From Escherichia coli (GTDB taxonomy: Bacteria; Pseudomonadota; Gammaproteobacteria; Enterobacterales; Enterobacteriaceae), in the NCBI RefSeq assembly GCF_003018115.1, contig NZ_CP027458.1: a stretch of 64,000 nt of DNA; one strand, 5' to 3'. Positions 12,001-15,000 of the stretch are shown piece after piece; within the stretch, counting starts at the first letter, position 1, and every line of letters begins with the position of its first letter. Position numbers: made by a program.

Positions 12001-15000
12001 TTCCCCGGTGTTTTTTTTCTTCCCGGCAACAAGAAGCGTGTACGACGCGGTGTTAACGTGGATATTTCGGGTACTCATCCTGCTTTCTCCTCTCTCTGGT
12101 TTTCAGCCCCCATCATCGGTTGAGTTTCGGGAGCCGCCGCAGGCCACAGCGCGACAAGGGTGGCGCGACCGTTCCGGTCGCTGCAAACCCGGGGCAGAGC
12201 ATCTTTCGCTTAATTTCCTGCCCCTGATTATCATTAACAAATCAACAACATGGTCATAGGCTGACCGGCCTGTTGGCTGAAAAGCATCATCAGTGCACTC
12301 AAATCACTGGCTTTTTTTCTGATAACTGGCGTGTGATTTTCCACGCTATCCAACAGTTCCCCCAGTTCATCATTGATTTGCCATAACTGTTTCAATAGCG
12401 TTTCCGCATCCAGGCTGCTCTGGTATGCAAGATTTGCCTGAACAGCACGATTCTGCATGATGTCGATTTGTGCGATTGCGTCTTTCTGCTGATCGCCTGT
12501 TGGCTGATAAGTGGTGTTAAAAGAAAATGCGCTCATGTTTCATTCTCCTGTGTCTGATGTTTTCAGCCCCCATCATCTGTTGAGTTTCGGGAGCCGCGGT
12601 TTTGACGTTTTGCGGGGACCTGCTCTTTGTTCCCTCCGGTATTCACCATCACCTGTTTGAGAACCTTCGCCGCATGGGGCATCACTGCCACGGCCTGACG
12701 CACCTGTCCTGGGCAGAACGCAAAATTTTTTACCGGGTTTTGGGTAAAAAATTTTGTGGGCTGTTCATTTACCCTGGACAGTCAGTGCGGCAGGTTGTGG
12801 CTGTCTATGCCCCCGGCGACAGGGGCTTAAACAGGTGAATGGCACCGGACAGAACAATGGGCAGGGACCCGCCGCAACGACGTGAAGCGCGGTTTGCGAA
12901 ACGGCGTTGCCCCTTACATCCCGGCTGCCTTTTGCCGGGATGCCGGGAGCGCAGGCCACGGCGCGACAGAGGCGGCGCGACCGGAACGGTCGCTGCAAGC
13001 CCGGGGTTTCGCGTCAGGGATGGAAGCCCGCCAGGGCGGAGACAGCTCCGCTGGCTCCGTTCACGACAGCCCGCCCCGCCAGGGGGACGCCCGGAAAAGG
13101 CATAAGCAGGAGAACAACAAAACAGACAATAATCAGGGCAGCAGTAACAGTAATCAGAACAGGAGGAAAAAGAGAATAATCAAAGGGAAGGTGATGTGAT
13201 TTCTGACAGGTCATAAACAGAGAAGGCGGGGGAAAAGAACGGGCGCCGCAGGCGCACGTTCATTCCCGTTCCCTGAGGGAAACCGCCTTCCTGGCAGTCT
13301 GGTTGTTCACGCTGCTACAATGTCAGCAAGGAGAAAGGGGCCACCGGCGAACCAGCAGCCCCTTTATAAAGGCGCTTCAGTGCAGTCAGACCAGCATCAG
13401 CCCTGAAAAGGCGGGCCTGCGCCCGCCTCCAGGTTGCTACTTACCGCCGGATTCGTAAGCCATTGTTGCCGTAACTTCCCTGTATCCGTCCTTCAGCCGG
13501 ACTTCGCACAGGCGATTCCGGGTCAGGAGTGTGAATATCAACAACGTGCAGCACACGATTAATACGCACCAGATAAGGGCGTTTCCCGGTAGTTTCATGG
13601 CCTTCTTCTCCTTGCGCAAAGCGCGGTAAGAGGCTATCCTGATGTTGTCTAAGCATGCAGGGGCCTCGTGGGTTAATGAAAAATTAACTACGGGGCTTTT
13701 GTCCTTCTGCCACACAACACGGTAACAAACCACCTTCACGTCATGAGGCAGAAAGCCTCAAGCGCCGGGCACATCATAGCCCATATACCAGCACGCTGAC
13801 CACACTCACTTTCCCTGAAAATAATCCGGTCGTTCAGCCAGTTCACGGGCAATCAGTTCATCCGCAAACAGTGGTGCATGCCTGTTGATACGTTTCTCCA
13901 GATTCCGCCGCCGTACCGCAGCCTTACGTTCTTCGCTCCAGCGGCGCACCGGGCGGTCAGAAATAAAATCCAGACAGACCGCATACCCTGCTCCGGCAAC
14001 CCAGCGTGACATAACGGATGCCGGTGCAGGCTGCCCCGCCTCCACCACTTATGAAACCAGTTCATGCTCGCCAGGACAGGGATAAGGCAGTTTCCAGCGC
14101 AGTGAGTAACGCCACTTCACGCCGCCTCCCGGAGTTTGTTCGGCACCATCCACCGCTCCATCTCACGGACAGCGTGACCCGCCTCCCTTGCTGCCATACC
14201 TGCCTCTGCGATGACCTGCCAGAATGGCATATCCTGCCACTGCCAGCGTTCCATTCCGGCCAGTGACGGAAAACGCTCACCCCACTGCCAGAACAGGGTT
14301 TCCAGGTCATGCTCTGCCACCCGGTCACTCCAGCGTGCATACCAGCTTCCGACTGTTTCCGGCGAATGGAATGCCAGTTCGATTTCAGCCTGAGCGACCA
14401 GCGCCTGGTACGCACGGGCTTTCTGCTCTGCCTCCCTCGCCTGCTGGCGGCTGTACTTCTGCATGACCAGCGCGGATTTATGGCGACTGCGTTCCCTGAC
14501 ACGAAACCGCACCGACGGGAACAAGCGTTCTGCTGCATCGCCTGGAAGGGGAAGGAGGCAGACCTCGCCCTGTGTTTCAATCAGCACATCGATGGCATAC
14601 AGCCACTGAAGACGGTTGCCGTGCAGTTCTTCTGCGGTCAGGGACGGCATGAAAAATCGCAGGTCAGACAGCGATATCCTGCGGCTTCCGTTCAGACAGC
14701 GGAAAAACGCCCCCGCATACGGATATTCAGCCAGCGTGTTACCCTGATGGCGGCGTTTTTCGGTCTCCGCCACCGCCCGCCATGCGGCCTGTTGCTCTGT
14801 GCTGAGAGGAACCAGTGCCTGTGAACGTGCGCTCATGCCTGACCTCCTTCCGCCATCAGGATATGGATGATGTCACTGACGCTGTACCCCTGCGCGTCCA
14901 GTGACGCCGCCAGTGCCAGTGAATGGCTGACGGCTTCCGGTGCAAACCGCCGCTGTACCTGAACCACCGCAAACGGCTCACCACCGGCATTCACCAGAAC

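Follow-up and report, generated by a model that had tools for sequence, protein, structure and literature searches.

A probable complete hok/mok/sok locus between two Frpo repeats in an IncF plasmid leading region

Results

An IncF (FIA/FIB/FIC-type) plasmid from Shiga-toxin-producing Escherichia coli, represented by a window of 64,000 nucleotides (i.e., the whole stretch of DNA that was analysed), was found to carry in its leading region a locus that very probably constitutes a complete hok/mok/sok (flmA/flmC/flmB-type) type I toxin–antitoxin, or post-segregational killing, system. Direct support for this identification came from the sequence elements, which are present and conserved, from predicted folds, from homology and from synteny. 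In agreement with the original prediction of a classic type I hok/mok module, matches well past chance level and above the cut-offs were obtained with Pfam, NCBIfam and Rfam. The whole locus spans approximately 13327–13802 (Table 1). The range first proposed for it, 13437–13720, took in both reading frames and Sok but stopped short of the hok promoter and mRNA 5' end (to 13802) on one side and of the 3' UTR with fbi and the terminator (down to approximately 13327) on the other. The module and its arrangement between Frpo repeats are already known and conventional, since flmAB was noted between Frpo1 and Frpo2 by Couturier et al. 2023 (PMC9849209).

Table 1. Features of the hok/mok/sok locus and of its surroundings in the window
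Feature	Position	Strand	Description
oriT nick region (GCGTAGTGTGT/GGTGCTTTT, nick at the slash)	9944–9963	+	Nick between 9954 and 9955; F/R100 nick sequence match
Frpo unit A (F Frpo1 homologue)	12544–13165	-	ssDNA hairpin 12585–12901
hok (mok-hok) mRNA	13327–13766	-	Putative extent from Rfam alignment start, folds and homology
Terminal rho-independent terminator hairpin	13334–13365	-	14-bp stem in fold, then UCUCCUU
fbi element (CUGAAGCGCC)	13371–13380	-	3' UTR; nine tac–fbi pairs in consensus structure
Hairpin GGAGGCGGGCGCAGGCCCGCC followed by UUUU	13406–13431	-	Just past hok stop; putative 3' stem-loop of processed mRNA; present in folds
hok toxin gene	13437–13598	-	53 aa; Pfam and NCBIfam matches
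mok frame	13441–13656	-	71 aa; overlaps hok in another frame; start 58 nt upstream of hok ATG
sok promoter	13612–13640	+	-35 TTGCGC (13612–13617), 17-nt spacer, -10 TATCCT (13635–13640); read from sequence
Sok antisense RNA	13645–13701	+	Predicted, approximately 55–60 nt; fold -24.7 kcal/mol, z = -4.2
tac element (GGCGCUUGAG)	13757–13766	-	mRNA 5' end; pairs with fbi; invariant in 8/8 loci
hok promoter	13773–13802	-	-35 TGGTCA (13802–13797), 18-nt spacer, -10 TATGAT (13778–13773)
psiA	14117–14836	-	Leading-region gene
Frpo unit B (F Frpo2 homologue)	18177–18795	-	Hairpin 18217–18535; directly upstream of ssb

Both coding frames were recognized by family models. The hok frame matched Pfam HOK_GEF PF01848 (E = 2.2e-16, 59.6 bits versus 22) and the NCBIfam Hok-family toxin model NF007279 (102.4 bits versus a cut-off of 73), while the mok frame, preceded by a Shine–Dalgarno sequence (GAGG) at 13664–13667, matched Pfam DUF5431 (E = 8.5e-40) and the NCBIfam equivalog NF010277, "modulator of post-segregation killing protein" (146.3 bits versus a cut-off of 110). 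The same organization was noted on comparison of eight loci from E. coli, Shigella, Klebsiella and Enterobacter, including that of plasmid F (NC_002483). An intact hok of 52–53 aa was found in all eight, as was a mok start at the identical offset of 58 nt upstream of hok. Toxicity of the hok allele in the window, which stands 13 residues and one inserted Gly apart from the tested F and R1 alleles, is assumed by analogy. In the RefSeq record, Hok is called from an internal start and cut to 40 aa, Mok is flagged as partial and Sok is without annotation.

The antisense component was indicated by a match of Rfam RF01794 (sok) to positions 13596–13767 of the minus strand (92.6 bits versus a gathering score of 59, E = 2.8e-20). 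Apart from this match, only FinP and the traJ 5' UTR reached the Rfam threshold in the 64-kb window. Matches at 10784–10941 (miRNA, His leader and others) were sub-threshold, coincided with an AT-rich palindrome and were rejected as spurious. The sok promoter, which was below threshold in an automatic consensus scan, retained its position and 17-nt spacing in 8/8 loci with the pattern TTGC..-17-(T/C)AT(C/A)CT. The predicted Sok RNA, the inferred ends of which were placed only by homology, opened with a single-stranded 5' tail, complementary in sequence to the start region of mok, and continued into a terminator hairpin and UUUU, and the Sok region was 99% identical to the flmB region of F. An antisense partner was therefore identifiable from its promoter, hairpin and U-tract; the 17-nt promoter spacing and the Sok hairpin accompanied an intact hok in each of the eight diverse loci.

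The hok promoter was sigma-70-like (9/12 matches in a consensus scan) and nearly identical to that of F flm (92%). No single-stranded-DNA hairpin was found at this promoter by folding of the T-strand (z = -0.31), and on this value the site was rejected as an ssDNA hairpin promoter; it is thus considered an ordinary duplex promoter. A promoter-like site on the plus strand at 13796–13825 was set aside as being at chance level (2 sites found versus 1.2 expected). The mRNA 5' end (GGCGCUUGAGG), located at 13766, was conserved and coincided with the start of the Rfam alignment. Hok-sense RNA gave z = -5.1 when extended to the terminator (443 nt) and z = -4.7 when ended at approximately 398 nt, the presumed homologue of the full-length end of R1. 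By homology, the hok mRNA 3' ends would fall near 13370 (just past fbi) and near 13327–13333 (past the terminator hairpin), and the processed mRNA would end near 13407. In R1, two full-length forms of hok mRNA and one truncated form occur (Le Rhun et al. 2022, PMC9841398).

Folding of the mRNA and of the antisense region, the check proposed with the original prediction, yielded a tac–fbi lock in the former and the Sok hairpin (z = -4.2) in the latter. Thus, in minimum-energy as well as centroid folds of both the 443-nt and the 398-nt RNA, GGCGCUU at the extreme 5' end paired with AAGCGCC at 13371–13377. In the consensus structure of eight sequences, all nine tac–fbi pairs were kept in 8/8 and 17 compensatory pairs were seen elsewhere; because tac and fbi are invariant, the helix between them is without covariation and its support is conservation. 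When the RNA was cut at the homologue of the processed end (approximately 13407), the predicted fold of the 5' region changed. Within the hairpin just past the hok stop, a compensatory change from C-G to G-C was seen in 3/8 loci, while the pairs of the terminal hairpin were conserved, several of them through one-sided changes (C-G to U-G and U-G to U-A). In terms of R1 hok/sok, the former hairpin would be the stem that protects the processed RNA, and the latter the terminator.

It is very unlikely that the locus is a decayed, non-functional remnant comparable to several chromosomal hok loci. The internal stop in the adjoining gene at 13806–14120 and the flagging of Mok as partial by RefSeq would fit decay of this kind. 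However, both promoters, tac, the mok Shine–Dalgarno sequence and ORF, the hok ORF, fbi and both 3' hairpins are intact, the regulatory parts are 99–100% identical to those of the functional flm of F, and the partial status of Mok is an annotation artefact, the full 71-aa ORF fitting the Mok equivalog from end to end. With all elements intact, the remnant reading was rejected in favour of a complete locus.

The direction of the leading region was evident from oriT. The nick region gave a single match to the F/R100 sequence, whereas none was found in 100 shuffles, and traM lay on its 5' side. A nick on the plus strand with traM 5' to it identifies this strand as the one transferred and shows that the leading region runs to higher coordinates. 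As the plus strand is the sole template while the DNA is single-stranded, all transcripts made in that phase must be minus-sense and run to lower coordinates. All leading genes, including hok, are on the minus strand, so that the incoming strand is their template, and Sok is templated by the complementary strand. An over-representation of toxin–antitoxin genes in leading regions, in the orientation that can be transcribed from the T-strand, was described by Samuel et al. 2024 (PMC11541004).

The order of genes in the window was traM, oriT, SLT, DUF932, ygeA, orf100, Frpo, hok, psiA, psiB, parB-like, DUF905, ssb and Frpo. This is the gene order of the F leading region and confirms both the leading-region placement and the position of hok between an Frpo copy (unit A, 12544–13165) and psiA (14117–14836, minus strand) that had been proposed. 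The gene between psiA and hok (13806–14120) is a pseudogene with an internal stop that is absent in F, where the gap between psiA and flm is approximately 45 nt.

The two Frpo repeats of the window are F-type and are context only, outside the toxin module. Units A and B are direct repeats spaced 5633 bp apart, with 96.3% identity over 618 nt. Each contained a T-strand hairpin of approximately 320 nt and was 92–95% identical to the F Frpo regions. Folded as DNA, the plus strand of unit A gave -159.5 kcal/mol (z = -11.3), and unit B gave z = -11.1. Unit A, which starts approximately 165 nt past the hok terminator, shared 92% identity with the flm–ygeA interval of F, and unit B shared 94% with the stretch that precedes ssb in F. 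Unit A abuts the start of a 100-aa ORF (12536..12234) and unit B abuts the start of ssb (approximately 18170), both genes being on the minus strand and only a few bases from the respective unit. A consensus scan of the Frpo hairpins for -35/-10 boxes gave no site of at least 9/12, and by eye none could be assigned with confidence; the AT-rich apex of the hairpin resembles an UP element. The direction of Frpo transcription is therefore argued not from boxes but from template polarity and from the abutment of each unit on a gene start. From its sequence context, unit A presumably drives ORF 12536..12234 and ygeA, away from hok.

The single-stranded-DNA promoters Frpo of F were reportedly described by Masai and Arai in 1997. 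As in the window, Frpo1 and Frpo2 of F are two direct repeats approximately 5.6 kb apart, upstream of ygeA and of ssb; in the window, unlike in F, unit A is separated from ygeA by an additional 100-aa ORF and by a short Frpo fragment that is duplicated. According to Couturier et al. 2023, Frpo1 and Frpo2 are approximately 5 kb apart, F Frpo1 drives ygeA and ygeB, and transcription from ssDNA in the recipient was shown for F.

Comparison with hok/sok and flm, also proposed at the outset, revealed the same order of elements, with regulatory parts 99–100% identical to those of F flm. The flmA/flmB/flmC (stm) locus of F matches the locus in the window both in position (psiA, flm, Frpo1, ygeA) and in orientation relative to oriT. 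Identity to F was 92% for the promoter, 98% for the tac region, 99% for the Sok/mok-start region and 100% for the 3' UTR, as opposed to 73% nucleotide identity for the hok CDS; over its 53 aa, Hok carries 13 substitutions and an additional Gly, and the overlapping Mok is changed correspondingly. Approximately 290 extra bases (the pseudogene) separate psiA from the hok promoter in the window and are missing from F. The R1 hok/sok (parB) locus has the same architecture and, by analogy, would share its mechanism with the locus in the window. An allele in NZ_LS999561, taken here to be R1-type on the basis of its Hok sequence, aligned throughout with the window locus and had the same element order; identity was 83% for the Sok/mok-start region and 73% for the hok CDS, and the Sok 5' recognition tails of the window and of this presumed R1-type allele differed (UCUAAGCAUGCAGGGG versus ACUAGACAUAGGGAUG).

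A different pattern was noted with the IncFII-type plasmid NZ_CP020338 of Shigella flexneri, in which the locus likewise adjoins psiA. Here, the hok CDS and the 3' UTR were each 100% identical to those of the window whereas the Sok/mok-start region was only 77% identical, and the sok promoter read TTGCAA-17-CATACT as opposed to TTGCGC-17-TATCCT in the window. The window therefore combines a CDS of the NZ_CP020338 type with an F-type antisense module. From these alignments, the locus is a mosaic, composed of an F-type leader/antisense module and 3' UTR (99–100%) and a divergent hok CDS.

The distribution of the locus was assessed with a 551-nt query searched against plasmid records and 5426 complete E. 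coli genomes. At least 5000 plasmid records, the majority of them from conjugative MOBF plasmids (4129 predicted to be conjugative among the matches listed), contained a homologous locus, as did 3234 of the 5426 genomes, in which it was nearly always plasmid-borne. All eight loci of the closer comparison adjoined psiA on MOBF/MPF_F plasmids. The hok CDS allele of the window was common (983 of the best 5000 matches at 95% identity or more), while the combination found in the window was rare, only 32 records among the matches listed being at least 95% identical over the whole locus.

Discussion

By analogy, the most likely mode of action of the locus in the window is that of R1 hok/sok, the elements, roles and mechanism of which are applied here from Le Rhun et al. 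2022 (PMC9841398). The weak duplex promoter would give rise to a stable hok mRNA of approximately 400–440 nt, in which tac at the 5' end would be locked to fbi at the 3' end. This lock would keep both mok and hok, which is translationally coupled to it, silent and would block the binding of Sok. Slow trimming from the 3' end would then remove fbi, allow the 5' end to refold and open the mok ribosome-binding site. In plasmid-carrying cells, the abundant but unstable Sok would base-pair at the start region of mok and RNase III would destroy the resulting duplex, whereas in plasmid-free cells Sok would decay first and Hok would be made, with damage to the membrane as the outcome. The RNA kinetics, toxicity and killing phenotype of this locus would, by homology, be those of F flm and R1 hok/sok.

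The position of the locus between two direct Frpo repeats that are 96% identical implies that recombinational loss of ssb-psiB-psiA would also remove the locus and would thereby be penalised. The idea that flmAB, situated between Frpo1 and Frpo2, guards that segment was put forward by Couturier et al. 2023. The locus further provides a worked example of leading-region strand logic, with the T-strand as template for the toxin mRNA and the complementary strand as template for the antitoxin RNA.

A connection between Frpo transcription and hok was part of the original prediction, which placed hok directly upstream, in terms of transcription, of an Frpo copy and suggested that read-through from the ssDNA promoter region could influence toxin expression on entry. 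The placement is true of unit A and is itself what defeats the suggestion, since transcription from a unit that lies downstream of hok leads away from the toxin gene and is unable to enter it. An effect of the adjacent copy (12544–13165) on hok expression via read-through, for which only proximity speaks, is thus extremely improbable: T-strand transcription runs to lower coordinates while hok is at higher coordinates than unit A, unit A lies against the start of ORF 12536..12234 downstream of it, an arrangement paralleled by unit B and ssb, and the homologous Frpo1 of F drives ygeA and ygeB (Couturier et al. 2023). Read-through is therefore wrong for the copy that was named and speculative for unit B, the distal copy and the sole ssDNA promoter located upstream of hok, approximately 4.4 kb away through ssb, DUF905, parB-like, psiB and psiA.

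It is rather unlikely that ssDNA transcripts from unit B cross psiB and psiA into hok in the recipient, where hok-sense RNA might then be present before Sok. Strand polarity would permit it, for the T-strand is the plus strand, so that the incoming strand templates hok and not sok, and Sok cannot be made in the single-stranded phase because the strand that templates sok is still absent. From ssb to hok, all genes share one orientation. Scans of the minus strand from 18177 to 13766 predicted no convincing intrinsic terminator, nor was one predicted from the psiA stop to hok +1, although Rho-dependent termination could occur in the untranslated stretch of the pseudogene that intervenes here between psiA and hok (psiA being approximately 45 nt from flm in F). 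While flmC was listed among the genes downstream of Frpo2 by Couturier et al. 2023, deletion of Frpo2 was without effect on conjugation efficiency in the same study. Furthermore, a 5'-extended RNA may fold differently, and the tac–fbi lock together with slow processing would delay Hok past an ssDNA phase of a few minutes. A literature search yielded no direct evidence of hok expression from ssDNA. The further proposal, that read-through from unit B could supply the recipient with hok mRNA, stable and locked, ahead of any Sok, with addiction from the first minutes and killing of recipients that subsequently destroy the plasmid by restriction or CRISPR, is quite improbable. If true, it would explain the constant retention of hok/sok, in spot and orientation, in F-like leading regions. 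Likewise, Frpo-driven read-through into hok, if real, would link post-segregational killing to the earliest stage of plasmid establishment.

The practical value of these results is for annotation, as RefSeq shortens Hok, flags Mok as partial and omits Sok. In the same record, a "frameshifted SSB" pseudogene was placed over an Frpo hairpin.

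Mosaic structure of the hok/sok locus

Comparisons of nucleotide sequence with the corresponding loci of other plasmids show that the hok/sok locus at 13325-13830 is a recombinant mosaic with a breakpoint close to the hok start codon. The leader/Sok module and 3' UTR in this interval were 99-100% identical to flm of plasmid F, whereas identity to F within the hok CDS was 73%. The same CDS was 100% identical to that of the IncFII Shigella plasmid NZ_CP020338, the Sok module of which was only 77% identical to that of the window. This CDS allele was common, with approximately 983 of the best 5000 matches at an identity of at least 95%, and its combination with an F-type Sok module was rare, being noted in 32 records among the matches listed.

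The window also differed from F upstream of hok. The entire 290-bp segment that holds a small pseudogene between psiA and the hok promoter was absent from F, in which the end of psiA was approximately 45 nt from the flm region. The product of this gene, which was flagged as a pseudogene in RefSeq and contained a stop codon at 14049-14051, was 76-87% identical to proteins labeled either "theronine dehydrogenase" or hypothetical.

Annotation of the locus and features of the Frpo region

Several calls in NZ_CP129265, a RefSeq record identical in sequence to the window, are annotation artefacts. Hok was called as a 40-aa protein from an internal ATC start (window 13559) as opposed to 53 aa from the ATG at 13598, Mok (DUF5431) was flagged as a partial pseudogene yet its 71-aa ORF is complete, and a "frameshifted single-stranded DNA-binding protein" pseudogene (window 12563-12768) was placed over the Frpo A hairpin. 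Sok was not annotated in the region equivalent to window 13437-13656.

Rfam matches to the palindrome region between the SLT and DUF932 genes were all sub-threshold and spurious. At 618 nt, the Frpo repeat units were roughly double the hairpin in length, and the distal part was GC-rich and conserved with smaller hairpins. Hydrophobic ORFs of 61-66 aa were present in both units but are doubtful as real genes. Compared with F, the window contained approximately 400 bp inserted between Frpo unit A and ygeA, including a short Frpo duplicate that lacked the long hairpin and showed no significant fold (z=-1.4).

Positions of features in and around the hok/sok locus
Feature	Position	Strand	Remarks
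Palindrome	10800-10854 (region 10784-10941)		AUGAUAAUAUAAGUAAAUCCC...GGGAUUUACUUAUAUUAUCA; near-perfect, AT-rich
Insertion relative to F	12074-12543		
Short copy of both Frpo unit ends	12074-12137 + 12138-12194		within insertion
100-aa ORF	12234-12536		within insertion; no family match
Frpo units	12544-13165, 18177-18795		
Distal part of Frpo unit	12902-13165		
Hydrophobic ORFs	13014-13214, 18647-18832		
Small pseudogene	13806-14120	(-)	homologues 104-107 aa; internal stop
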